From the NCBI GenBank assembly GCA_963718755.1, contig OY970376.1, positions 527,673 to 591,672 on the forward strand: a DNA stretch of 64,000 nt, given 5' to 3'. The notes beneath the pieces are model-generated. The model had not been told where the DNA came from. It ran no database searches and worked only from the letters and a program-made list of their open reading frames with translations. How positions within the stretch are numbered: the first letter of the stretch is position 1; each line of letters begins with the position of its first letter. The DNA comes from an uncultured Solirubrobacterales bacterium (lineage in GTDB: Bacteria; Actinomycetota; Thermoleophilia; Solirubrobacterales; 70-9). Positions 5,590 to 58,009 of this stretch are shown here, one piece after another. The position numbers were made by a program, and so were the translations under genes.

Positions 5590-6030
5590 ATGAAGAAGCT
5601 CGCCTCCCTCCTCGTCCTCGCCCTAGTCGCAGCCGCCCTCGTCGCCTGCGGTGACGACGACTCGACCACGACGACGACCACGTCCGAAACCAGCTCCGGT
5701 GCAGCAGCGGAAGGTGGCGAAAAAGCCGGCGGCGAAGCCGGCGGCGCGACCCTCGCATTCGAAGCCGATCCCAGCGGCGAACTCGCCTACACCAGCACCT
5801 CCGCGGAAACCGAAGCCGGCGAAGTCACCGTCGACTTCAAAAACCCACAGGGCCTCAGCCACGATGTCGCGATCGAAGACTCGAAAGGCGAAACCGTGGG
5901 CAAAACCGACGTGATTGGCGAAGGCGAAACCTCCACCAAGGTCAATCTGAAATCGGGCGAATACACCTTCTACTGCTCGGTCCCCGGCCACCGCGAAGCA
6001 GGGATGGAAGGAACGCTGACTGTCAAATAG
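5590..6030 (+). CDS. Cupredoxin (plastocyanin/azurin-like) lipoprotein
   Basis: MKKLASLLVLALVAAALVAC lipobox signal, Thr/Ser linker, and type-1 copper ligand pattern HD...YCSVPGHREAGM. The internal ATG of the 380-aa track ORF is preceded by GGAAAGGA. Confidence 0.8.
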   Translation: MKKLASLLVLALVAAALVACGDDDSTTTTTTSETSSGAAAEGGEKAGGEAGGATLAFEADPSGELAYTSTSAETEAGEVTVDFKNPQGLSHDVAIEDSKGETVGKTDVIGEGETSTKVNLKSGEYTFYCSVPGHREAGMEGTLTVK

Positions 6031-6072
6031 GCGGTCCCTGACCGGCGCATCTCGGCGTCCTCGGTCACTCGC

Positions 6073-7362
6073 GTGCCAGCGCACGCCACGTTCCCTGCGT
6101 CCTTGATCTGCTTGGCCAGGAACCGCCTATTCTGGATTGCAGTTGGCGTTTGGCTCGCTACGCGTGGGTTGATCGTTGCCAACGTAGGTTTTTGGGGTGA
6201 CCTGCGGCTGCAGGACATCAATAACTATGAGGTCTGGTCTCACTACCTGACGGCCAACCATGCGATTCCGGGCGGGGAATCGTGGCAGTACCCGCCCGGC
6301 GCGGCCTTCCTGATGCTCCTGCCGCGCCTCGGGCCGGGGACTTATGGCGAGTCCTTCGTGGGTCTGATGCTGCTCGTCGACCTTGCCGGCCTTGCCTTGC
6401 TGGCGCTGCTCGGCCGCCGGTCAGGCAACTACACCGGCGTATGGGTGTGGCTGCTGGGCATGCCCCTGCTCGGCACCTTCGCGGTGCTGCGCTTCGACCT
6501 CGTGCCTGCGGTGATCGGGATCGCAGCGCTCGTCGTCATCCACCGCCGCCCCAACTGGTTTGGCGTCCTGGCGGGACTGGGGGCGGCGATCAAGGTCTGG
6601 CCGATAGTCCTGCTCTTCGGCGAGTGGGACCGGCGCCGGCTCATCCACGCGGTCACCGCGGCGCTCGGAACGATCGCACTCGTAGTCGTGATCTCGACGC
6701 TTGCCTTCGGCGGTTCCGCCTCGTTCCTGGGTGAGCAAAGTGAGCGCGGGCTCCAGGAGGAAGCGGTGGCGACGGTGCCATGGCAGGTGCAAGCGATAGT
6801 CACGGGAGAGGGGCCCACCAGGGAGATCCGATACGGAGCGTGGGAGATCGCCACCCCCGGCGCGGACACGGTTGCCAGCCTGCTCAAGTGGCTGACCGTT
6901 GCAGCGCTTGGTGCTGCGGCAGCATGGTGGTGGTACCGGGCCAGGGCGATCTGTGCTGGCCGAGTCGACCTTGCCGATGCGGCAGTGAGCCGGGACTTCG
7001 TCTTCACCATCGTCCTGCTCCTCGTCGTCACGAGCCGGGTGCTCAGCCCTCAATTCATGGTCTGGCTCCTGGGCCTCTCAGCAGTGGTCCTGACGGCAGG
7101 GAGCACCCGCCTGGCTCGACCCGCCTGGCTGGTGCTCGGGGCAACGATCCTCAGCACCAGCCTGTTCAAATCACCAGAGAACATCGTGATCCGAGACCTG
7201 GCACTGCTGGCCGCCACCATGGACGCAGCGATCGCCATGATCGGCATGCTGAGAAAGCCACTAGCTCCAACAGACCTCGTCGGGCCCATGGCCAGAACCG
7301 CTCAGGCTGAGCCAAAGAGAATCACCGAGCCGGTTACACGGCGGGCGCCATCACGCGGGTAA
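6073..7362 (+). CDS. Polytopic membrane protein, possibly a GT-C type glycosyltransferase (DUF2029/GT87-like)
   Basis: 429-aa ORF with about 10 hydrophobic helices. The N-terminal loop and general layout are reminiscent of actinobacterial mannosyltransferase-like DUF2029 proteins. The family call is by eye only. Confidence 0.5.
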   Translation: MPAHATFPASLICLARNRLFWIAVGVWLATRGLIVANVGFWGDLRLQDINNYEVWSHYLTANHAIPGGESWQYPPGAAFLMLLPRLGPGTYGESFVGLMLLVDLAGLALLALLGRRSGNYTGVWVWLLGMPLLGTFAVLRFDLVPAVIGIAALVVIHRRPNWFGVLAGLGAAIKVWPIVLLFGEWDRRRLIHAVTAALGTIALVVVISTLAFGGSASFLGEQSERGLQEEAVATVPWQVQAIVTGEGPTREIRYGAWEIATPGADTVASLLKWLTVAALGAAAAWWWYRARAICAGRVDLADAAVSRDFVFTIVLLLVVTSRVLSPQFMVWLLGLSAVVLTAGSTRLARPAWLVLGATILSTSLFKSPENIVIRDLALLAATMDAAIAMIGMLRKPLAPTDLVGPMARTAQAEPKRITEPVTRRAPSRG

Positions 7363-20146: not shown

Positions 20147-20186
20147 ATATTCCCAAGCTCGTCGGATCTCAACCCCGGAGCAACGC

Positions 20187-20295
20187 GCGGGTGTGCGGGG
20201 TGTCCCCCTGCGGAAACATTGGAGCCCTCCCCCGGTAAGAACCCGTAAGGCCGCTCCTATGCGGGTTTACGCAGGGGGACACCCCGCACACCCGC
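20187..20295. repeat. Family-2 nested palindromic element, copy X1
   Basis: Perfect 26-bp inverted repeat (20187-20212 / 20270-20295) enclosing an inner GAACCCG/CGGGTT stem. It fills most of the phoU-ppx spacer and is related to 27145-27242. Confidence 0.85.
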
Positions 20296-20994
20296 CTACT
20301 GATTCGGGTGAGACGCGTCCTCGAACTCGCGAAACAACCCCGTGACGACGAAGGCAACCTGCTCGCCGATGTCAACCGCGTTGTCGGCAATCCGCTCGAT
20401 CGCGCGCGCCGACAAGAGCATCGTCATTGCCCACTCGCGACTGTCGAGATCGTCACCGATCTCCAGCGCCAGACGGAAGCAATCGCGGTTGAGGTTGTCG
20501 ACGACGTCGTCTTGCCGGACCAGGTCGCGCGCCATCTCGACGTTGCGCTCCTCGAAGGCGCGCTTCGACTGGCTGATCAGGGTGCGGGTCTGACGACCCA
20601 TGGTCAGGATCAGCTTCACCATCTCTGGGTCGGCCGGTGGCTCGTTGCCGGTCAGCGGGATCAGCTTGCAGATGTTCACGCACTGGTCGCCCATCCGCTC
20701 GACGTTCTTCAGCACATGGAGCAGGGCCGAGATCAAGCGCAGGTCGGTTGCAACGGGTGACTGCGTGGCGAGCAACGTGATCAGCGCCTGGTGCACCTCC
20801 AGGTAGCGGCCGTCGATGCGGTCGTCGTCGGCGATTACCAGTTGCGCCAGCTCGACGTCCTGCTGCTCGACGGCTTCCAGGGTCCGCCCAAGCGCGCCTG
20901 TGACCAAGTCGAGGCCGCCGAGGGCGCTTGCCTCGAGCTTTTCCAGCTCCTCCTGGTATTGCACCCTGGTCTGCGCGGGCATCCGCGCCGTCAC
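20296..20994 (-). CDS. phoU: Phosphate signalling complex protein PhoU
   Basis: Two PhoU repeats ([26 protein letters not shown]). 4-nt overlap with pstB. Confidence 0.9.
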
Positions 20995-22848: not shown

Positions 22849-23816
22849 TCGTAGACCTCGCGGTACCTGCGGACCAGCCTGATGCTGATCACGTTCATCA
22901 CCAGGGTGATCAAGAAGAGCAGCGTGCCAACCGCAAAGACCGATTTGTAGCTGATCGAGCCAGCGGGGATGTCGCCCGTCGCGGTAACGGCAATGTAGGA
23001 GGTCATGGCTTGTATCGCCTCAACCGGATTGAGGGTGAAGTTCGGGGTTGACCCGGCGGCAAGGACGACGATCATCGTCTCGCCGACGGCGCGCGAGATC
23101 GCCAGCACGATCGAGGCGACGATGCCGGAGAGCGCCGCCGGGAAGACGACTTTCGTGGACACCTCCATCTTCGTCGCGCCCATCGCGTAGGCGCCTTCGC
23201 GCAGGCCGCGGGGGACAGCGGACATCGCGTCCTCGGAGATCGAGGCGATGATCGGCACGATCATCAGGCCGATGCCGAGCCCGGCAGCGAGGGCCATGAA
23301 CGGTTTGCCGACCGCGCCGCCGAAGAGGTCGCCCGGCCAGAGTGGCTGGATCAGCTCGGGCAGGATGAAGGTGACGGCGAAGAAGCCGATCGCCACAGTT
23401 GGGATTCCGGCGAGGATCTCGAGGGTCGGCTTGAGCGTTTTGCGCACCCGTGGAGCCGCGTACTCACTGAGGTAGATCGCCGACCCGAGGCCGATCGGGA
23501 TCGCGAACAGCATCGCCCAAAGGGTGACGTTGAGGGTGCCGGCGACGATCGCCAGCACGCCAAAGCTGGGTGGCTCGAACTGGGGGGTCCAGTCGGTGCC
23601 GAAGAGGAAATCGCCGATCGGGACGACTTCGAAGAAGCCGATCGTCGGTCCGACCAGGGAGATGACGATTGCGGTCGTGGTCAGCACCGAGAGGATGCCG
23701 CAGAGAGCGAGGACTCCCTGGATCGCCTTCTCGCCGTAACGACGGCTCGGCGCCTGGAGCCGGCCGGGGCCTCCCCCGGCCGGCTCCAGAGCCGTCTTGC
23801 CGCCGTTGCCGCTCAC
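22845..23816 (-). CDS. pstC: Phosphate ABC transporter permease PstC
   Basis: Polytopic permease with an EAA-type loop (ISEDAMSAVPRGLREGAYAMGAT). 4-nt overlap with pstA. Confidence 0.9.
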   Translation of the reverse strand: MSGNGGKTALEPAGGGPGRLQAPSRRYGEKAIQGVLALCGILSVLTTTAIVISLVGPTIGFFEVVPIGDFLFGTDWTPQFEPPSFGVLAIVAGTLNVTLWAMLFAIPIGLGSAIYLSEYAAPRVRKTLKPTLEILAGIPTVAIGFFAVTFILPELIQPLWPGDLFGGAVGKPFMALAAGLGIGLMIVPIIASISEDAMSAVPRGLREGAYAMGATKMEVSTKVVFPAALSGIVASIVLAISRAVGETMIVVLAAGSTPNFTLNPVEAIQAMTSYIAVTATGDIPAGSISYKSVFAVGTLLFLITLVMNVISIRLVRRYREVYE

Positions 23817-27144: not shown

Positions 27145-27242
27145 GGGGACCGGATGCCCCCTGCCGGAACCCGCGACGGTCGCACGGCCAGGGTTCGCGC
27201 CTCCCCGGCTCACAAGTTCCTGCAGGGGGACATCCGGTCCCC
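27145..27242. repeat. Family-2 nested palindromic element, copy X2
   Basis: 20/21-bp inverted repeat (27145-27164 / 27222-27242, one bulged A) with an inner GAACCC/GGGTTC stem. Its reverse complement aligns with X1 at 20187-20295. Confidence 0.85.
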
Positions 27243-34625: not shown

Positions 34626-34729
34626 ACCCCGAACCTGCAGGCCCCAAGCGCGCATGTGGTGCGCACTTCGTGCCGCCTCCGTTCCAAGAAAGAGACGGCA
34701 CAAAGACATCTATCTGATGGAGGCGGCCG

Positions 34730-35075
34730 GAATCGAACCGGCGTCTCTGGCCGTAGCGCGAAGGTTTCTACAGGTTTAGCCGGCGCTTGATTCTCGTCTC
34801 CCGGGGTCCGCGCCGGCGGGCACTGCGGGAGACAAAGCCCTCTGAAATTTCCCCTTGCGGACGGGGCGATCCGCCTGGGTAAGCCCGCAATTGAAGCCGG
34901 AACCCCCCTCCGCGGGCGGGAGAGGGCCGACTCTCACTCACTTAGATCTAACTAAGCAGCGAGGGCGAACTCATGGTCCGCACGTATTGGTTGGTGCCGG
35001 TGTTTAACGAGGCCTCCGGCAACCTCGACCTGCAACCGTTCGCACGGATCGACCAGATCGAAGCCTGTCGCCCCC
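34730..35075 (-). ncRNA. ssrA: tmRNA (transfer-messenger RNA)
   Basis: 5' GGGGGCGACAGGCTTCGA..., 3' ...GCCGGTTCGATTCCGGCCGCCTCCA. The acceptor stem GGGGGCG/CGCCTCC has G3-U. Internal tag frame ...GCG GAC CAT GAG TTC GCC CTC GCT GCT TAG (ADHEFALAA*) at 34952-34981. CCA is not encoded. smpB lies 3 kb away. Confidence 0.85.
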
Positions 35076-35107: not shown

Positions 35108-36484
35108 ATGCCGGAGCGAGAATTCGACGCAATCGTGATCGGCGCCGGCGCACCGGGTGAGGTCTGCGCGGGCCGGCTCGCCGACGGAGGGCTCTCGGTC
35201 GCAATAGTCGAGAGCCACCTGGTTGGCGGCGAATGCTCCTACTACGCCTGCATGCCATCGAAGGCACTGCTGCGGCCGGGCGAGCTGCTGGCGGAGGCGC
35301 GCCGGGTGCCCGGCGTCAGCGCCGCGGTGACCGGCAACCTCGACTCGCAAGCGGTGCTCGACCGCCGCGACGAGGTGATCCACGACCTCGACGACTCCGG
35401 CCAGCTGCCGTGGCTGGAGGAGCGCGGGATCGAGCTCTTCCGCGGCGAGGGCCGGCTGGACGGCGAGCGACGGGTGGTCGTTGGCGAGGCGAGGTTGACC
35501 GCAGGCAAAGCCATCGTCGTCGCCACTGGCAGCGGCGCCGCAATGCCTCCGATCGAGGGGCTCAACGCGGTCAAAACCTGGAACAACCGCGATGCGACCA
35601 CCGCAAAGCAAGTGCCCGAGAGCATGGTCGTACTCGGCGGCGGCCCCGTCGGATCGGAGCTGGCCCAGGCCTGGTCGACGCTGGGGACCTCGGTCACCTT
35701 GATCGAGGGCGAGGGCAGGCTGCTGCCGCGCGAGGAGCCCTTCGCCGGCGAGCAGGTAGCAGCGTCGCTACACGACTCCTACGGAATCGACGTCCGCACC
35801 GGCCTGCTTGCCGAGCGTGTTGCTGCCAGCGACACCGGAATCGTGGTCGAGCTGAACGACGGCAGCCGGGCTGAAGGGGCTGAGCTGCTGATGGCGATCG
35901 GTCGCGTTCCCCGCACCAAGGAGATTGGCCTGGAGTCGGCCGGGGTCGAGCCCGGCGAGCCCGGCTTCTTGGAGACCGACGCGCAACTGCGGGTCGGCGG
36001 CCGCGATTGGCTCTACGCAGTCGGCGACGTCAACGGCCGCGCCCTCTTCACCCACATGGGCAAGTACCAGGCCTGGGTCGCCGCCGAGAACCTGCTCGGC
36101 CGCGAGACCGAGGCGGTGGCCGAAGGCATCGGCTCACCCCGCGTCACCTTCACCGACCCCCAGGTCGCCGCCGCCGGCAAAACCCTCGCCCAAGCCGAAG
36201 CGGATGGCATCGACGCCCGCGCCGTCGACGTCCCCACCGACGGCACCGCCGGCGCCAGCTTCTACGGCAAGGGCACGGGTGGCACGTCCCGCCTCGTCGT
36301 CGACCAGGCCAACGAGACGATCGTCGGCGCCACCTTCACCGGCTTCGAGACCGCCGACTTCCTCCACGCGGCCACCGTCGCAATCGTCGGAGAAGTACCT
36401 CTCAAACAGCTACGCCACGCCGTGGCCGCCTATCCAACCCGCTCCGAGATCTGGCTCAAGCTGCTGGAGGCTGCCGGCCTGTAA
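35108..36484 (+). CDS. FAD-dependent pyridine nucleotide-disulfide oxidoreductase (class I, dihydrolipoamide dehydrogenase/mercuric reductase-like)
   Basis: DAIVIGAGAPGEVCA Rossmann motif, redox-active GGECSYYACMPSK, and a second NAD(P) fold VVLGGGPVGSE. ATG at 35108 avoids overlap with ssrA. Confidence 0.85.
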   Translation: MPEREFDAIVIGAGAPGEVCAGRLADGGLSVAIVESHLVGGECSYYACMPSKALLRPGELLAEARRVPGVSAAVTGNLDSQAVLDRRDEVIHDLDDSGQLPWLEERGIELFRGEGRLDGERRVVVGEARLTAGKAIVVATGSGAAMPPIEGLNAVKTWNNRDATTAKQVPESMVVLGGGPVGSELAQAWSTLGTSVTLIEGEGRLLPREEPFAGEQVAASLHDSYGIDVRTGLLAERVAASDTGIVVELNDGSRAEGAELLMAIGRVPRTKEIGLESAGVEPGEPGFLETDAQLRVGGRDWLYAVGDVNGRALFTHMGKYQAWVAAENLLGRETEAVAEGIGSPRVTFTDPQVAAAGKTLAQAEADGIDARAVDVPTDGTAGASFYGKGTGGTSRLVVDQANETIVGATFTGFETADFLHAATVAIVGEVPLKQLRHAVAAYPTRSEIWLKLLEAAGL

Positions 36485-36485
36485 G

Positions 36486-36593
36486 CCCCTCCCGGTAGGG
36501 GTGGAACGTCTTGTACTTTTTCGTCGAGGCCCCTGGGCGATAGCCCACAAGCAACCCACCGAAAAAGTTAAGTGGAACCCCTGCCGGGAGGGG
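36486..36593 (+). repeat. Family-1 structured intergenic element, copy 1
   Basis: 108-nt nested hairpin filling the spacer between two convergent stop codons. The conserved core is shared with 55037-55150. Confidence 0.85.
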
Positions 36594-38195
36594 CTACACC
36601 CGTGAACGCCTCTTGAGGTCTTCAGCAAACTCCCTTGGCAGGCCAGGAATCTCATCCAGCTCGTCGATCGAGCTGAAGCGGCCGACGCGCTCGCGGTGGG
36701 CAAGCAGGCGGGTCGCCTGGGTGACGGACAGCCCTTGGGCGCGTAGCTGCTCGAAGCTGACGTTGTTGAGTTCGATCGTCTCCCCGACTTGGGCCGCGGG
36801 CGGCGATGGTTGCGGGGGCGACGGCGGGCCTGGTTGCGGCTCGGGCTGCGGCGGAGCTGGTGGAGGACCCGGCTGAGGCTCTGGGGCTGGTGGCGGCGGT
36901 TGGGGTACTGGGGGCTGAGGCGTGGGTGACGGCGAGGGTGGCGGGCTGGGCGGCTGCGGACCAGGGGGCTGTGGGGCGGCCTGCGGAGGCAGCGGCTGAG
37001 GGGTCAACGAGGCCTCGCCTCCGCCCTGCACCGCCCCGAGCACGGCCTGCTCCGCTTCGGCGGCACGGCGCTCGGCCTCGCGCGCGCGCTCCTCTGCCTG
37101 GGCGACGCTCTCCTCGATCTCGCGCAGGCGCTGCTGGCGCTCTGCCTCTTCCGCTTTCAGCTTCGAGAGGCGCTCGGCCTCGGCAGCGCGTCGTTCGGCC
37201 GCCTTGGTCCGCTCCTCGATCTGGCGCAGGCGCTCCTGCGCTTCGGAGAGCGAGCGCTCCTGCGCTTCGCGCTCCTGCTGCAGGCGCTGCTCGGCCGTCT
37301 GCAGGTCTGGGGCCGCCGGCGACGGCGACGGCGGCACCGCAGCCATGCTCTGCGTCGTCTGGCCCGCCGCGGCCTGCGCCTGGCGCGCCTCGGCCTCGCG
37401 CTGGAGCCGCTCCGCCTCGGCGATGCGCCGATCGGCCTCAGCCCGAATTCGCTCCTCCTCGCGCTGAATTTCTGCCACCTTGTCCTGCACCCGCTGTTCG
37501 GCCGTTGCCGGGTCGTAGCCGGCTGGCAGAGGCGGCGGAGGAGGGACGCTCGGCGGCGCGGGAGGCTGCATTGGCGGCGGTGCCGGGGGCGGCGGAACCG
37601 CAGCGGTGGGCGCCGGCGGGACTGGTGGCGGCGGAACCGGCGGCGGCATCACCACAGGCGGCACCGGCTGGGTCTGGGCCGGTGGCTGGGGCGGCTGGGT
37701 AGTAGCCGAGCTCTCCTGCTCGAACAGCGCCCGCTCTTGAGCGGCCCGCGCGGCGGCGAGGTCGCGCTCGGCCTTGACCGCTTCCTTCTTCGCGCGGCGG
37801 CCGGAACCGCCGGCCTTGGTCGGCTTGTGGCGTCGCTCAGCCCGCTTCTGGGCGCGTTCCTGGCGGCGCCGCTTCGCCTCTTCGGTGCGCCGTTTGCGGT
37901 GTTCGCTGCGCGCTGCGCGCTGCTGCGCGCGCGCCTGCTTGCGTTTCTCCTTGGCGTTCAAAGGTTTGCCACCGGGCGGCGGCGGGGGTGGTGGTGGGGC
38001 GCCTGAGCTTGCGACGCCGGCGGGCTGAGACGCCGGGGACGCGCCGGGGGCCGGGGGCGACTTGCCGGCCCCTGCCTTCTTGCTCTGGTCCTTGCTGCGC
38101 CGCTGGACGATGCTGATCACCAGCAGGAGGAGAAGGATCGCCACCACCAGCCCGGCGACGAAGTACTGGACGTTGTCGCTGACGAAATCAGCCAT
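36594..38195 (-). CDS. Membrane-anchored Pro-rich / coiled-coil protein with C-terminal helix-hairpin-helix (ComEA-like) DNA-binding motif
   Basis: N-terminal TM (YFVAGLVVAILLLLLVISIV) then a Lys/Arg-rich segment, PPPxP tracts and ERxAAEAER heptad-like repeats. C-terminal FEQLRAQGLSVTQATRLLAHRERVGRFSSIDELDEIPGL. Confidence 0.7.
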   Translation of the reverse strand: MADFVSDNVQYFVAGLVVAILLLLLVISIVQRRSKDQSKKAGAGKSPPAPGASPASQPAGVASSGAPPPPPPPPGGKPLNAKEKRKQARAQQRAARSEHRKRRTEEAKRRRQERAQKRAERRHKPTKAGGSGRRAKKEAVKAERDLAAARAAQERALFEQESSATTQPPQPPAQTQPVPPVVMPPPVPPPPVPPAPTAAVPPPPAPPPMQPPAPPSVPPPPPLPAGYDPATAEQRVQDKVAEIQREEERIRAEADRRIAEAERLQREAEARQAQAAAGQTTQSMAAVPPSPSPAAPDLQTAEQRLQQEREAQERSLSEAQERLRQIEERTKAAERRAAEAERLSKLKAEEAERQQRLREIEESVAQAEERAREAERRAAEAEQAVLGAVQGGGEASLTPQPLPPQAAPQPPGPQPPSPPPSPSPTPQPPVPQPPPPAPEPQPGPPPAPPQPEPQPGPPSPPQPSPPAAQVGETIELNNVSFEQLRAQGLSVTQATRLLAHRERVGRFSSIDELDEIPGLPREFAEDLKRRSRV

Positions 38196-44499: not shown

Positions 44500-46347
44500 C
44501 TAGAGCGCCCGCTCGACCGCGGAGACGATGTGCTCCGCGTCGATTCCCGCGGCGGCCAGCAGGGCTGCGGGCGGGCCGCTGCCGGGGCGGCCGCTGACCG
44601 CGAGGCGGACCAGCGGCGTGCTCGTGGCAGCTTCGGCGAGGACGCCGGCGACGGTCTCGCCGATCCCGCCCTCGGGCCAGTGGTCCTCGACCGTGATCAG
44701 CGCCTTGGTCTCCCCCGCCGCGGTCAGGATCGCTTCGGTGTCGACCGGCTTGACCGAGTAGAGGTCGATCACCCGGGCCTCGATCCCCTTGCCGGCGAGC
44801 TGATCTGCCGCGGCGAGGCATTCGCGCAGGGTGATGCCGGCGCCGATCAGCGTTACGTCGCCGCCGGCGCGAACCGTGTGGCTGCCGCCGATCGCGAAGC
44901 TCTCCCCCGCCTCATAGAGCACCGGCGTCGCCTCGCGCGTCGTCCGCATATAGCTGATGCCGCGATGCTCGCGCATCGCGTCGAGCAGCTGCACCGCCTG
45001 GTTGGCGTCGCTCGGGTAGAGGATCACGCTGTCGAAGACGGCGCGCAGCGAAGCGATGTCTTCGAGTGCCATCTGCGAGGGCCCGTCGGGACCGATCGAG
45101 ACGCCGACGTGCGAGCCGCAGAGCTTCAGGTCGGCTTCGGAGACCGCGGCCATGCGGACGAAGTCGTAGGCGCGGCTGAGGAAGGCGCCAAACGACGAGG
45201 CAAAGGGCTTCCAGCCGCGCGTCTGCAAACCCACCCCGGCGGCGACCATCTGCTGCTCGGCGATGTACATCTCGAAGAAGCGGTCCGGGTGCTTGGCGCC
45301 GAAGCGTTCGGCGTAGGTCGAGTTGCCGACCTCGCCGTCGAGCGCGACGACTTTCTCGTCCACCGAGCCAAGCCAGGCGAGGGCGTCGCCGTAGGCGGCA
45401 CGGGTCGCGACCTTCTCGCCGACCTCGTAGGTCGGGCGCTCGACCGACTCCCTGGCAATCTCGTAGGGCGGCGCCTGCGGTGGCGAGGGCACCTCGACCC
45501 GCAGCGAGCGGACGCCGCCCAGCTCCTCGACCGCAGCCTCGGGATCCGCCAGCGGCTTGCCGTGCTGGTTCGGCTGGTCCTCGACCGCGGCGACGCCGGA
45601 GCCCTTCTTGGTGCGGGCGAAGATCACGGCCGGGACGTCGGCGGCCAGGGCGCGAGCGTATGCCGTATCGATCGCCGCGAGGTCGTGACCGTCGATCTCC
45701 TGCACGTCCCAGCCGCAGGCGGCTGCGCGCGCCGCCCAGGAAGAGGTGTCCCACTCGTGCATGGTCGGGCCGCGCTGGCCGAGCCGGTTGACGTCGACGA
45801 TCGCGATCATGTTGTCGAGGCCGGCGTGGCCGGCGTGCTCGAACGCCTCCCACATCGAGCCCTCGGCCAGCTCGGAGTCGCCGCAGAGCACCCAGACGCG
45901 GAAGTCCGCCGCCTCGAGGCGCTTGCCGGCGAGCGCAATCCCGACCGAGATCGGCAAACCCTGGCCGAGCGAGCCGGTCGCGACATCGACCCAGGGGATT
46001 TCCGGCGTCGGGTGGCCCTGCAGGCGAGAACCGAACTCACGGAAGCTGAGCAGCTCCTCGTCGTCGATTGCTCCGGCCGCTTTGTAGAGGCCGTAGAGCA
46101 AGGGCGAGGCGTGGCCCTTGGAGAAGACGAGGTGATCGTTGGCGGGGCTCTCCGGAGCGTCGAAGTCGTAGCGCAGGTAGCGCGTCAACAGCACCGCCAT
46201 CAGGTCGGCCGCCGACATCGACGACGTCGGGTGACCGGAGTTGGCGGCGGCGGCGGCGCGGACCGAGTCGACGCGCAGCTGCTGAGCCAGCTCATGCAGC
46301 TGCTCGGGGCTCGCGGCCTGCTCGGTGATGACCTCGGGCGAAGACAT
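44500..46347 (-). CDS. tkt: Transketolase
   Basis: SGHPTSSMSAADL and GSLGQGL TPP-binding motifs. ATG at 46347 (MSSPEVITEQ); the upstream part of the 750-aa track ORF is rejected. Confidence 0.9.
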   Translation of the reverse strand: MSSPEVITEQAASPEQLHELAQQLRVDSVRAAAAANSGHPTSSMSAADLMAVLLTRYLRYDFDAPESPANDHLVFSKGHASPLLYGLYKAAGAIDDEELLSFREFGSRLQGHPTPEIPWVDVATGSLGQGLPISVGIALAGKRLEAADFRVWVLCGDSELAEGSMWEAFEHAGHAGLDNMIAIVDVNRLGQRGPTMHEWDTSSWAARAAACGWDVQEIDGHDLAAIDTAYARALAADVPAVIFARTKKGSGVAAVEDQPNQHGKPLADPEAAVEELGGVRSLRVEVPSPPQAPPYEIARESVERPTYEVGEKVATRAAYGDALAWLGSVDEKVVALDGEVGNSTYAERFGAKHPDRFFEMYIAEQQMVAAGVGLQTRGWKPFASSFGAFLSRAYDFVRMAAVSEADLKLCGSHVGVSIGPDGPSQMALEDIASLRAVFDSVILYPSDANQAVQLLDAMREHRGISYMRTTREATPVLYEAGESFAIGGSHTVRAGGDVTLIGAGITLRECLAAADQLAGKGIEARVIDLYSVKPVDTEAILTAAGETKALITVEDHWPEGGIGETVAGVLAEAATSTPLVRLAVSGRPGSGPPAALLAAAGIDAEHIVSAVERAL

Positions 46348-51615: not shown

Positions 51616-52172
51616 AGAAGTCGCTGGAGCAACTCACCGATCGCGCTGTCGCCGAGGGCCTGCTCGACGTCGCCTACGCAAACGTCGACACGCCCTTCGG
51701 GCCGCTGCTCGTCGCCGCGACCCCTCGAGGCCTGGTCAAGATCAGCTTCCCCTCGGCCCATGAGACCGAGGAGACGCTGGAAGATCTGGCCACGCGGATC
51801 TCACCACGCGTGCTGGAGGCGCCGGCGCAGCTGGACGAGGTCCGTCGCCAGCTCGAGCTCTACTTCGAGGGGCGCCTGCGCGAGTTCGACCTGCCGCTCG
51901 ACTGGCAGCTCAGCAAGGGCTTCCGGCGCCGGGCGCTGCGGGCGATCGACCGCATCCCTTACGGCAAGACCCGCAGCTACACGGAGATCGCCCGCAGCGC
52001 CGGCAACGAGCGGGCGGTGCGGGCGGCAGGGACGGCATGCGGCTCCAACCCGATCCCGATCATCGTCCCCTGCCACCGGGTCCTGCGCAGCGGCGGCGGC
52101 CTCGGCGGCTACGGCGGCGGACTGCCGATGAAGGAGGCCCTGCTCGAGCTGGAGGGCGCGAACTTGTCCTAA
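51612..52172 (+). CDS. ogt: Methylated-DNA--protein-cysteine methyltransferase
   Basis: Active site IPIIVPCHRVL and HTH YGKTRSYTEIA. ATGA overlap with the sigma gene stop. Confidence 0.9.
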   Translation: MKKSLEQLTDRAVAEGLLDVAYANVDTPFGPLLVAATPRGLVKISFPSAHETEETLEDLATRISPRVLEAPAQLDEVRRQLELYFEGRLREFDLPLDWQLSKGFRRRALRAIDRIPYGKTRSYTEIARSAGNERAVRAAGTACGSNPIPIIVPCHRVLRSGGGLGGYGGGLPMKEALLELEGANLS

Positions 52173-54617: not shown

Positions 54618-55022
54618 CTACTCGGCGGCGACGCCGTGGTCGAAGCCGCCTGCGTGCAGGGCCTCGGCCCGATCCTCGAAAGGCCGCCAGCTGCGCACCC
54701 GGTGGTCGTGCAGCTCGAAGAGCCAGGCCATGGCGTCCTCGCCCGCGGCGGAGCCGTCCTCGTCCCAATGCCACACCCGCCGGATCAGGGCAACGGCGGA
54801 CCCACCACCGGATTCGGTCCCGTCCTCGTAGAGATGCTCCAACTCGATCGTCTGCTGGACGCCACCCGGCGGGCGCGTAGCCCACAACCGCGCCGCCTCC
54901 CGCCCCTTCCGCAAGCCCCTCATCGAATGAAGCTCAACCCCAGGATCAAGGACGCGGACAAACGCATCGAGGTCCCGCTCGTTGAACGCCCGGATGAACT
55001 CTCGAACAGGGTCGCGGGTCAC
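54618..55022 (-). CDS. SnoaL-like / NTF2-fold protein
   Basis: REFIRAFNERDLDAFVRVLDPGVE N-terminus typical of SnoaL-like domains. 134 aa. Confidence 0.6.
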   Translation of the reverse strand: MTRDPVREFIRAFNERDLDAFVRVLDPGVELHSMRGLRKGREAARLWATRPPGGVQQTIELEHLYEDGTESGGGSAVALIRRVWHWDEDGSAAGEDAMAWLFELHDHRVRSWRPFEDRAEALHAGGFDHGVAAE

Positions 55023-55036
55023 AGGGGCGCCAGCTT

Positions 55037-55150
55037 AGAGGCCGTCGCGGTAGGGGTGAAACGTCTTGTACTTTTTGGCCACCGCGATTCGCGGAAGACC
55101 GAAGGGCGCAACACCCAAAAAGTTAAGTGGAACCCCTACCGCGACGGCCT
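55037..55150 (+). repeat. Family-1 structured intergenic element, copy 2
   Basis: 114-nt nested hairpin between the secA stop (55163) and the downstream gene start (55022). Same core as 36486-36593, with a different 13-bp outer stem. Confidence 0.85.
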
Positions 55151-55162
55151 CTCGGACGGGTC

Positions 55163-58009
55163 TCAAGCCCCATGACACTTCTTGAACTTTTTCCCGCTGC
55201 CGCACCAGCACGGATCATTCCTGCCGATTTCTTTCTCGCGCTCGTCCTTAACCACGGTCTCGACCACCTCCGGCGCCGGAGCACCGTTGCCGCCGCCCCC
55301 GGGCCTGGCGGTGCCTTCGGTGACACTGACGCCGCCCCCGGCGGCGACCTCTTGCAACGCTGAGGGCTGCGCGTCGGGCGTGCCGCCGGAGTAATCGAGC
55401 GCCGTCGGGGCGCCACCGTTGCCGCCGAAAGCGCCATCGAGCTGGGACGGATCGACTTCGATTTCGGCGTTGAAGACCAGTTTGCTGAATTCCTCCCAGA
55501 TCGAGTGCATCAACTCCTCGAACATGGAAAAGCCTTCGTTTTTGTAGGCGACCAGCGGGTCGATCTGTGCGAAGCCACGCAGGTGGATGCCCTCGCGCAG
55601 GTAATCCATGTCGTAGAGGTGCTCGCGCCAGCGGCTGTCGATGACCTGGAGCAGGATCGAGCGCTCCAGGTAGCGCATCAGCTCCTCGCCCAGCTTCTGC
55701 TCGCGATCGTCGTAAGCGCTCATCGCGTCTTCGTCGAGGGAGTCCTTGAGCTTTTCGCGGTCGACCATCTCCGGCGCCATCGAGCCGACCTCGGTGCCCA
55801 CCGGCCAGATCTGCCGCAGCTGCTGCTCCATGCCGAGCATGTCCCACTCGTCGAGGTCGTCGCCGGGCGTGTACTCGTCGACGAAGCGCTCGATGACCCC
55901 CTCGAGCTCGTCGCGGGCGATGTCCGACATGTCGCGGCCTTCGAGGATCTCGCGGCGGTATTTGTAGACGACGCGACGCTGCTCGTTCATCACGTCGTCG
56001 TACTCGAGCACGCGTTTGCGGATCAGGAAGTTCTGTTCCTCGACCTTCTTCTGCGCACCCTCGACCGTTTTGGACAGCATTTTCGCCTCGAGTGGCATCT
56101 CCCCGCCGTCCTCGTCGACGGGTCCAAGCCGGTCGAGAATTTTGAAGATCCGGTCGCCGGCAAAGAGGCGGATCACGTCGTCTTCGGCGGAGAGGAAGAA
56201 GCGCGTCTCGCCAGGGTCTCCCTGTCGACCCGAACGACCCCGCAGCTGGTTGTCGATGCGCCGCGATTCGTGGCGCTCGGTGCCGCAGATGTAGAGGCCG
56301 CCGAGCTCACACACTTCCTCGGCCTCGGCCTTGCACTGCGGCGCCAGCTCAGCGATCTTCGCCTCCAGTGCCTCCTCGTAGCCCTCGTCGTCCGGGTTCA
56401 GGCTCTGCTTCTTCAGCTCTTTGTGGGCCAGGTGCTCGGAGTCTCCACCAAGCTTGATGTCGACGCCACGCCCAGCCATGTTGGTCGCGATCATCACCGC
56501 GCCCTTGCGACCGGCTTCGGCGATCCGCTCGCCCTCTCGTTCGGCGTGCTCTGGCTTGGCGTTCAGCACCGCGTGCTCGACCCCGTGCCGTTTGAGCTCG
56601 CCGGAGATCATCTCCGAGACCTCGACCGAGACGGTGCCGACAAGGATCGGCTGGCCCTTCTCGTGGCGGGCCATGATCTCCTCGAGAACCGCCTTCCACT
56701 TGCCGTCTTTCGTTTTGAAGATCTGGTCGTTTTGGTCGGCGCGAACCATCGGTTGGTTGGTCGGGACCTCGACCACCGGCACCTTGTAGATCTTCATGAA
56801 CTCGGTGGCCTCGGTCAGGGCCGTGCCGGTCATGCCGGAAAGCTTGTCGTAGAGGCGGAAGTAGTTCTGCAGGGTGATCGTCGCCAGGGTCTGGTTCTCC
56901 TCGCCGATCGGTACCCCCTCCTTCGCCTCGACCGCCTGGTGCAGACCCTCTGACCAACGCCGCCCCTCGAGGATGCGGCCGGTGAACTCGTCGATGATCA
57001 TCACCTGGCCGTCGACCACGGCGTAGTCCTTGTCCTTCTTGTAGAGCGACTCGGCCTTGAGCGCCTGACTCAGGTGGTTGACAAGCGTGCCGTGCTCGCT
57101 CAGATAGAGGTTGTCGACGCCGAGGAACTCCTCGGCGCGCTTTACGCCGCGCTCGGTTGGGGAGACCGTCTTGTGTTTCTCGTCATATTCGTAGTCGTAC
57201 TCGGCCTCGGAGGTGTCTTTCGATTCGCCCAGGGATTTCAGCCGGTCTTTGGCCGGGACCGCGTCCATCTGACGTGCCAGGCGGGCGAACTGGTAGTAGA
57301 TCTGGGCAGCCTGTTCGGGTGCGCCGGAGATGATCAGCGGCGTTCGCGCCTCGTCGATCAGGATGTTGTCGACCTCGTCGACGATCGCGAAGTGGTGGCC
57401 GCGCTGGACGCAGTGCTCGAGCGATTCGGACATGTTGTCGCGCAGATAGTCGAAGCCGAACTCGGAGTTGGTGCCGTAGACGATGTCGCAGGCGTATTTG
57501 ACCTGGCGGGCGGCGTGATCGTCGGAGTCCTGGATTGAGGCAACGCTGACGCCGAGGGCGTCGTAGACCGGCTTCATCCATTCCGCGTCGCGGCGCGCCA
57601 AGTAGTCGTTGACGGTGACGACGTGGACGCTGTCGCCGGCCAGCGTGTTGAGGAAGGCTGCCAGGGTCGCGGTCAGCGTCTTGCCCTCGCCGGTCTTCAT
57701 CTCGGCGATCGCCCCGTCGTGCAGGACCATGCCGCCGACCAGCTGCACGTCGAAGTGGCGCTGGCCGAGGCTGCGCCGCGCCGCCTCGCGGGTCAGTGCA
57801 AAGGCCTCGGGCAGGAGGTCGTCGAGCGACTCCCCCCCGCGGGCGCGCTCACGCAGCGAATCTGCCTCCGGACGCAGCTCCTCGTCGCCGAGCAGCTCCA
57901 TCTCGGGCTCGATCCTGTTGATCGTCGCGGCGCGCTTCTCATACGCCTTGAACTTGCGACCCTCTCCCACGCGCAGGGCGCGCGTGACCATGTCCCTGGC
58001 ATTCGCCAT
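55163..58009 (-). CDS. secA: Preprotein translocase ATPase SecA
   Basis: DEAD-like motor motifs (MKTGEGKTL, VDEVDNILIDEARTPLIISG) and C-terminal zinc motif CWCGSGKKFKKCHG. Confidence 0.97.
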   Translation of the reverse strand: MANARDMVTRALRVGEGRKFKAYEKRAATINRIEPEMELLGDEELRPEADSLRERARGGESLDDLLPEAFALTREAARRSLGQRHFDVQLVGGMVLHDGAIAEMKTGEGKTLTATLAAFLNTLAGDSVHVVTVNDYLARRDAEWMKPVYDALGVSVASIQDSDDHAARQVKYACDIVYGTNSEFGFDYLRDNMSESLEHCVQRGHHFAIVDEVDNILIDEARTPLIISGAPEQAAQIYYQFARLARQMDAVPAKDRLKSLGESKDTSEAEYDYEYDEKHKTVSPTERGVKRAEEFLGVDNLYLSEHGTLVNHLSQALKAESLYKKDKDYAVVDGQVMIIDEFTGRILEGRRWSEGLHQAVEAKEGVPIGEENQTLATITLQNYFRLYDKLSGMTGTALTEATEFMKIYKVPVVEVPTNQPMVRADQNDQIFKTKDGKWKAVLEEIMARHEKGQPILVGTVSVEVSEMISGELKRHGVEHAVLNAKPEHAEREGERIAEAGRKGAVMIATNMAGRGVDIKLGGDSEHLAHKELKKQSLNPDDEGYEEALEAKIAELAPQCKAEAEEVCELGGLYICGTERHESRRIDNQLRGRSGRQGDPGETRFFLSAEDDVIRLFAGDRIFKILDRLGPVDEDGGEMPLEAKMLSKTVEGAQKKVEEQNFLIRKRVLEYDDVMNEQRRVVYKYRREILEGRDMSDIARDELEGVIERFVDEYTPGDDLDEWDMLGMEQQLRQIWPVGTEVGSMAPEMVDREKLKDSLDEDAMSAYDDREQKLGEELMRYLERSILLQVIDSRWREHLYDMDYLREGIHLRGFAQIDPLVAYKNEGFSMFEELMHSIWEEFSKLVFNAEIEVDPSQLDGAFGGNGGAPTALDYSGGTPDAQPSALQEVAAGGGVSVTEGTARPGGGGNGAPAPEVVETVVKDEREKEIGRNDPCWCGSGKKFKKCHGA

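Follow-up and report, generated by a model that had tools for sequence, protein, structure and literature searches.

Hairpin elements in the window and their neighbours

The window, that is, the whole 64-kb stretch of DNA that was analysed, carries two copies of a hairpin element. Copy 1 lies between a gene for a pyridine nucleotide-disulphide oxidoreductase (+ strand, stop codon at 36482-36484) and an HHH_3-domain gene (- strand, stop codon at 36594-36596), and its stem includes the last A of the TAA stop codon of the former and the first two bases of the opposite-strand CTA stop of the latter. Copy 2 is flanked by two minus-strand genes, secA (stop at 55163) and a SnoaL-like gene (start at 55022) that is followed by prfB, and is placed 10 nt past secA and 14 nt ahead of the start of the SnoaL-like gene. 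A preliminary description of this DNA had located two loci with near-identical inner arms in the same orientation, and they are found exactly where it placed them. Its statement on copy 1, that the hairpin fills the spacer between convergent genes, does not extend to copy 2, which lies between co-directional minus-strand genes. The two copies consist of the following parts.

36484..36595, + strand: copy 1, whole hairpin element, 112 nt (arm match, fold, 116 bits with the covariance model R1)
36484..36502, + strand: copy 1, lower stem, 5' arm AGCCCCTCCCGGTAGGGGT, partner at 36577-36595
36503..36509, + strand: copy 1, junction, 5' side; GGAA unpaired, CG paired with TG at 36573-36574, then a bulged T
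36510..36518, + strand: copy 1, invariant core, 5' half CTTG-T-ACTT, with the bulged T at 36514
36524..36559, + strand: copy 1, variable centre, 36 nt, subfamily A, GGCGNNAGC ... CCACC
36565..36572, + strand: copy 1, invariant core, 3' half AAGT-TAAG
36577..36595, + strand: copy 1, lower stem, 3' arm ACCCCTGCCGGGAGGGGCT
55037..55152, + strand: copy 2, whole hairpin element, 116 nt (arm match, fold, 115 bits with R1)
55037..55057, + strand: copy 2, lower stem, 5' arm, perfect complement of 55132-55152
55065..55073, + strand: copy 2, invariant core, 5' half CTTGTACTT
55079..55114, + strand: copy 2, variable centre, 36 nt, different from (exchanged relative to) the centre of the orthologue at locus L061
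55120..55127, + strand: copy 2, invariant core, 3' half AAGTTAAG
55132..55152, + strand: copy 2, lower stem, 3' arm

The arms TAGGGGTG[G/A]AACGTCTTGTACTTTTT and AAAAAGTTAAGTGGAACCCCT each occur twice in the window in the same orientation, where chance would give none, and R1 finds copies 1 and 2 only. The R1 score is about 116 bits on one strand and 44-52 bits on the other, which fixes the polarity of the element. Copies 1 and 2 fold into a single nested hairpin on either strand, with free energies of -63.2 and -64.8 kcal/mol and z scores of -7.1 and -7.3, respectively, equalled by none of 200 shuffles. The outer stems had been described as perfect complements of 10 and 13 bp; they are indeed complementary, but the paired arms are longer than that, 19 nt in copy 1 and a perfect 21 nt in copy 2. 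Other differences and likenesses noticed earlier between the two copies have been confirmed, namely the compensatory change TTTTTCG/CGAAAAA versus TTTTTGG/CCAAAAA, the T-G versus T-A pair at the base of the GGGGT/ACCCC helix, the asymmetric internal loops kept in both copies and the 36-nt centre that is mostly unlike between them.

Family size and architecture

A two-arm pattern search of bacterial genomes, taken as one genome per species, has found at least 118 loci, nearly all of them in MAGs that bear the label Solirubrobacterales or Thermoleophilia and frequently contain several loci. With a pattern for a diverged core (CGGCTTGTACTT...AAGTTGAG), soil and rhizosphere metagenomes yield at least 120 loci. 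The window itself is about 91% identical to L061 of the genome set and so belongs to the same lineage. A covariance-model search for more homologues, which the preliminary description had named as a check, yields about 13 additional, more diverged copies when R1 is applied to 770 kb of flanking DNA; two copies in the 64-kb window and about 13 in these flanks suggest that a genome of 2.5-3 Mb carries tens of copies. Among viral contigs, the right arm has no match and the 17-nt left arm has 17, all of them chance matches in AT-rich phage DNA, and a BLAST search of plasmid and phage records gives no match to the element. Rfam 15 returns the tmRNA alone for the window at gathering thresholds, with no match to the element, and at E<=10 there are three chance-level matches only, in agreement with the earlier statement that the element corresponds to no named RNA family. 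A literature search for the core 12-mers has found no paper containing them, and a search for palindromic repeats in Solirubrobacterales has found nothing relevant. The hairpin repeat family as described here has apparently not been described before.

Across 116 copies, 98.1% of the cells are paired, compared with 87.9% in shuffles, and 372 cells carry double changes, compared with 81 in shuffles, the observed number being reached by none of 500 shuffles. The double changes are distributed over 20 of the 34 pairs, and when the partners are slid by 1-3 columns as a control, 31-55% are paired. The covarying stems that had been proposed from two copies are thereby borne out, and the family is supported as genuine, its core and internal loops being conserved and its stems covarying.

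The unit is a complete hairpin of about 112-125 nt. Its lower stem is about 20-21 bp long, is 97-98% paired and ends sharply. In the window subtype the lower stem has the loose consensus RGGCCYATCCCGG-TAGGGGT, and in the metagenome subtype its sequence is wholly free with complementarity kept; stem position 19 is a Watson-Crick pair in 116 of 116 copies of the metagenome set, and pairing decays beyond it. In L055 and L101 this part of the stem is turned round, with CCCC/GGGG in place of the GGGGT/ACCCC helix. The junction loop differs by subtype, being GGAACGU/UGGA, GAACGG/WGA or a near-continuous GCGG/CG. The invariant core is an 8-bp helix in the middle of the stem with a bulged U and a G·U wobble, CUUG-U-ACUU / AAGU-U(A/G)AG. 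The helix above the core is U/A-rich and covarying, with a top pair of CG in 89 copies, UA in 14 and GC in 11, and ACUUCUCGG is paired with CCGAG-C-AAGU. The centre is 36-40 nt long and falls into a few old subfamilies, among them A (n=46), B (n=37), E (n=9) and D (n=7), each in a fixed orientation to the arms and common to several genomes, and several of them coexist in one genome; a conserved fold was looked for within the centre and none was found. An 81-nt derivative at L069 (3056-3136) is without the whole centre, GTAC being joined to CGAAAAAG, and has stem and core intact.

Gene context, turnover and strand asymmetry

Gene context was scored by GC1>GC2 together with codon usage, since GC3-only calling overcounted divergent contexts through shadow frames, and orthologues were collapsed to give 85 independent loci. 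Convergent contexts account for 33 of these, co-directional for 29 and divergent for 3, with 18 unresolved; the share between convergent genes is 51% and that between divergent genes 5%. Placement is similar in the metagenome set. Counted from the stem base, stop triplets are most frequent at positions -2 to 0 on either side, and both orientations of the element relative to the abutting gene are common. The neighbouring genes are diverse, with 189 proteins falling into 137 clusters, and this clustering has found no recurrent gene family beside the copies. Genes flanked by two copies are ordinary ones coding for a wHTH protein, a rhomboid protease and a site-2 protease, and the flanks show no conserved motif. 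Some copies lie within apparent operons, examples being the copy that follows secA, 14 nt ahead of the next start, and the one that separates hemA from hemC. There is no T-rich flank across 116 copies, no terminator-like site in copies 1 and 2, and no promoter-like site or promoter consensus inside the element. The earlier view that this is not a plain terminator agrees with the lack of a T-run after the hairpin, and the canonical intrinsic terminator has been rejected for want of a U-tract at this position.

Comparisons between species have revealed six orthologous sites at which the element is present in one species and absent from another. The indel is the entire hairpin, variable stem included, down to the stem base, and the empty sites carry no hairpin. 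The empty counterpart of copy 1 has convergent stops 3 nt apart (TAG-CGC-TCA), and other empty sites have overlapping convergent stops (TTTAG, CTAA). In L035, the final codons of a gene have been replaced by the element. About 15 + 14 ORFs terminate on an element-encoded TAG or TAA, and HemA (L018 and its orthologues at the hemA-hemC locus) and a glycosyltransferase (L071) have reading frames that extend about 30 nt into the element and close with ...GRGST*, so that both the C-terminal tail and the stop codon of these two proteins are repeat-encoded. Indels of whole hairpins and the stops and tails supplied by the element are the marks of inserted DNA rather than of a terminator that evolved locally. 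Target duplication is not visible in the six filled/empty pairs, whose flanks are 10-25% diverged, so that a duplication of 2-3 bp could escape. From these alignments the polymorphism more likely represents insertion, although precise deletion is conceivable at this flank divergence.

Several single loci show other arrangements. It was considered whether the element had inserted into the loop of a terminator hairpin that was already there, but the empty orthologous sites are without a hairpin and rule this out. An outer stem that forms a hairpin by itself is a rare find, with one candidate at 1467 of L086; this palindrome at 1467-1500, GAGATCCCGG|CCGGGATAG, resembles a lower stem without the inner part and may be an excision footprint or a chance occurrence. 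The only solo half-copy in 0.96 Mb, on the - strand of L043 (about 4170 of the reversed locus), consists of centre and right arm and lacks a recognisable left arm. At L022 (2492-2622), which is orthologous to the copy 1 locus of the window, about 130 nt of extra non-coding DNA lies between the upstream stop and the element. At the guaA-side locus, the copy in L103 is reversed relative to those in L081, L116 and L125 and has a centre of another subfamily, pointing to a separate insertion at this site or to an inversion there.

Once in place, copies may be retained for long: 10 species have the element at the hemA-hemC locus and 6 have it at secA. Comparison of 57 orthologous pairs, whose flanks are on average 81% identical, gives identities of 98.4% for the arms, 68% for the lower stem and 43% for the centre. 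The arms are identical even though the flanks of the species differ by 20-25%, which demands purifying selection on the arm sequence and hence a sequence-specific reader. Close orthologues show compensatory changes in situ in the stem, CCCAG:CTGGG versus CTCAG:CTGAG and GAGTC:GACTC versus GGGTC:GACCC. Centre identity is bimodal, at either 72-92% or about 25-45%. Copy 2 and L061 are identical at 28 of 28 positions of a lower stem of unusual sequence and at 46 of 46 arm positions, and agree at 14 of 42 positions of the centre, with sharp borders of the replacement at the T5/A5 helix. Centres are thus swapped in discrete events while the locus-specific stem stays, and gene conversion through the identical arms would be the simplest reading of their replacement. 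Inversion of the centre between the inverted arms was rejected as the source of the centre differences, there being no centre matches in reverse orientation.

Among the non-Watson-Crick cells of the lower stem, G·T prevails over A·C, with ratios of 67:10 (p = 2e-11) for the metagenome copies and 34:11 (p = 8e-4) for the genome copies. The excess of G·T is seen in every context class, including loci where the sole abutting gene is on the opposite strand (27:6 and 17:8). Therefore, the selected hairpin is not simply the one in the mRNA of the upstream gene. The fixed G·U pairs of the core sit on the same strand as the G·T excess of the stem, and the + strand, as oriented in the preliminary description, folds 2-4 kcal/mol better than the - strand. 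In one-sided contexts, the abutting 3' gene end is on the - strand in 73 cases versus 29 on the other (p = 1.6e-5), and flanking GC skew in the + orientation is slightly negative, at 60% of loci (p = 0.01 and 0.04). The wobble signature, the orientation bias and the GC skew together suggest either a single-stranded DNA form or a selective unit at the level of the element rather than of the gene. However, IS608-type single-strand transposons have a bias opposite to that of this element, and in this respect the orientation bias and the GC skew count against a single-stranded DNA form. The wobble asymmetry could also be partly inherited from a few master lineages and not reflect independent events.

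Origin and possible function of the element

Interspersed hairpin repeats have been well studied in Proteobacteria (REP/REPIN, ERIC, Correia) and hardly in Actinobacteria. ERIC/IRU and Correia elements are found in transcribed intergenic DNA as imperfect palindromes about 100-150 nt in length, are present or absent at orthologous sites, and can act on mRNA processing or termination. They differ from the present element in having conserved terminal repeats and, for Correia, TA duplications, as against free termini and no visible duplication here. The ends of IS200/IS605 elements and integron attC sites are recognised in a strand-specific manner as folded single strands through bulged or extrahelical bases, and the sequence of their stems may vary. 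IS200/IS605 (PATE) ends, however, are two separate subterminal hairpins with a fixed tetra- or pentanucleotide target, whereas one hairpin spans the whole element here, and attC sites form cassette arrays adjoining an integrase, whereas the copies described here are single and dispersed. Tn3 inverted repeats (GGGG...TAAG), the K-turn, IHF sites and parS half-sites were also considered and dropped, since the registers do not fit.

The closest resemblance is to REP/REPIN sequences (PMC3116915, PMC3337134), which share with the family a hairpin outside genes in which two inverted halves pair over about 100 nt, copy numbers in the tens to hundreds, location at 3' gene ends, vertical persistence at orthologous sites, compensatory upkeep of the hairpin, no visible target duplication and plausible strand-specific recognition of a single strand. 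In contrast to the REP/REPIN-RAYT system, in which each half is a short imperfect palindrome headed by a conserved GTAG, the ends are the best conserved part and a gene for the cognate Y1 HUH transposase RAYT is usually flanked by copies, the ends of the present element are its least conserved part and the invariant motif is in the middle of the stem, the halves are not palindromic themselves, GTAG is present only in the GGTAGGGG (window) subtype and is absent from the metagenome subtype, the host is actinobacterial, and centres are swapped between subfamilies. Moreover, a tblastn search with E. coli RayT over 0.96 + 0.76 Mb (about 1.7 Mb) around the copies has given nothing real, the sole match being a spurious one in a succinate dehydrogenase Fe-S subunit. 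A RAYT-associated REPIN in the strict sense is rejected on account of the poorly conserved ends and the non-palindromic halves, with no RAYT found in this 1.7 Mb either. The most likely reading, held with moderate confidence, is that both loci in the window are copies of a non-autonomous, interspersed, REP/REPIN-like hairpin element that populates the 3' ends of Solirubrobacterales genes. Against it, neither the RayT search of this DNA nor the genes beside and between copies have yielded a partner enzyme.

A mechanism can be proposed for such an element. The folded + single strand, most plausibly single-stranded DNA as with HUH/Y1 transposases or integron integrases, would be read by a trans-acting protein through its invariant bulged helix, and this protein would cut or copy at the foot of the ~20-bp stem, a set distance away from the core. 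If cutting occurs at a fixed distance from the core, the stem would need only pairing and the right length. Copies would be homogenised or replaced by gene conversion via the identical arms, with turnover by insertion, loss and conversion. A transcribed hairpin at a stop codon would provide a 3'-end structure in either orientation, acting as an mRNA stabiliser, an attenuator or an insulator of convergent genes, and insertions after stop codons may survive because a transcribed hairpin is tolerated or useful there. By analogy with E. coli REPs and mycobacterial TRIT, a role of the transcribed hairpin at the mRNA 3' end is plausible. The invariant mid-stem core, the ruler-like stem of free sequence, the exchange of centres and a strand signature uncoupled from local transcription are unusual traits. 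More tentatively, and with doubt prevailing, they might identify a new actinobacterial hairpin replicator with recognition of the bulged helix on one strand, an arbitrary stem of about 20 bp as a ruler, an enzyme other than RAYT and a cassette-like centre, which would be of REPIN type but of independent origin outside Proteobacteria.

Two mobile-element or gene-like interpretations have to be compared with this REP/REPIN-like reading. A classical MITE derived from an IS with a DDE transposase, with the arms as terminal inverted repeats bound as double-stranded DNA, would explain why the first 20 nt of both ends share the consensus RGGCCYATCCCGGTAGGGGT in the window type and why presence/absence polymorphism is found at orthologous sites. 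The preliminary description had allowed for the core being the terminal inverted repeat of a MITE or IS; the behaviour is that of a mobile repeat, but the termini are the most variable part of the element, wholly free in the metagenome set. Furthermore, changes in the two arms are compensated and not independent, no target-site duplication is visible where flanks are 10-25% diverged, plasmid and phage records give no match, and 0.96 Mb contains one solo half-copy with neither paired solo arms nor a long, autonomous partner with these ends. The classical MITE is accordingly rejected as improbable. Even less credence is given to an independently transcribed small RNA gene or an attC-like recombination site with an exchangeable central cassette. 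The fixed polarity (about 116 versus 44-52 bits with R1), the strand-specific pairing signature, the exchange of the centre between fixed arms and the right-arm GTTAAGT, which fits GTTRRRY, are all in line with it, but the partner of GTTAAGT is ACTTTTT/AAAAAGT, the left arm having no paired RYYYAAC box, and the box of the variant type is GTTGAGN. In addition, there is no space for a promoter where both stops touch the stem and no promoter-like site has been found, the centre is without a conserved fold, and the copies are single and dispersed among unrelated genes rather than arrayed. The discrete RNA gene or RNA-level element implied by the preliminary description is not supported, in view of the occurrence of both orientations, gain and loss as a unit, stops and tails supplied by the element, and wobble that does not follow sense transcription.

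A stronger competitor, though still judged unlikely, is a host-selected RNA element for 3' ends, TRIT-like, that is, a factor-assisted bidirectional terminator or mRNA stabiliser, to whose stem and bulged helix a host dsRNA-binding factor or RNase III would bind, and which would have spread owing to its usefulness between tightly packed, especially convergent, genes. The near-absence between divergent genes with 51% of placements convergent, the stop codons in the stem base and the retention at hemA-hemC and secA over 6-10 species speak for it, and this long retention would fit a host function in any case. The constant duplex of about 20 bp also has the size of an RNase III substrate. TRIT comprises 147 palindromic, mostly bidirectional copies placed tightly at stop codons, has a conserved sequence suggesting a bound factor, and has been reported from Mycobacterium only (RNIE paper, PMC3152330). 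Compared by description only, the likeness is one of function and layout: both are actinobacterial and palindromic, and so bidirectional, have more than 100 copies at or over stop codons, and are conserved in sequence and structure, whereas mobility, centre exchange and a strand signature have not been described for TRIT. E. coli REPs, too, are combined terminators and stabilisers (bioRxiv 10.64898/2026.03.23.713779). Against a host-selected 3'-end element, G·T far exceeds A·C on the strand that the abutting gene leaves untranscribed in most one-sided contexts, and equally so in all classes; empty orthologous sites work without a hairpin; and the core differs between the two RNA polarities although both orientations are common. 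Mycobacterial RNA polymerase does not terminate at hairpins without a U-tract (PMC3993855), and a stand-alone intrinsic terminator is unlikely because there is no U-tract, which this polymerase needs, and because copies are found inside apparent operons, after secA and between hemA and hemC.

Whether as a REP/REPIN-like repeat or as a host 3'-end element, the family bears on actinobacterial transcript ends without U-tract terminators, which are still debated (TRIT, 'I-shaped' hairpins). Its hundreds of free-stem copies amount to a natural mutagenesis experiment that singles out the 8-bp bulged helix as the candidate recognition site and one strand as the active one. The recognising protein, if found, would reveal either a mobilisation system or a 3'-end factor of a new kind in an uncultured lineage that is abundant in soil. 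The covariance model also marks gene ends in these MAGs and flags C-terminal extensions derived from the element, such as ...GRGST.

The window contains several other structures outside this family. A long hairpin at 20174-20308 has 44-nt arms that are 84% complementary with 47 nt between them (GGGGTGTCCCCCTGCG... / ...CGCAGGGGGACACCCC), and it has no Rfam match at the gathering threshold. Inverted repeats of about 100 nt that are unrelated to the element are present at 6026-6131 (18-nt arms, 70 nt apart) and 27145-27242 (17-nt arms, 64 nt apart), and these may represent other repeat families. Perfect 16-bp inverted repeats are found at 23754-23789, where a 4-nt loop gives the appearance of an ordinary terminator hairpin, and at 51932-52001, with a 38-nt spacer. 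On the minus strand, ARAGORN predicts a tRNA-Glu(CTC) at 45288-45378, which at 91 nt is unusually long and may carry an insertion or be a miscall. The tmRNA at 34715-35075, also on the minus strand (152 bits with Rfam), is 1.4 kb away from copy 1, to which it has no evident link, and has a short predicted tag, ADHEFALAA.
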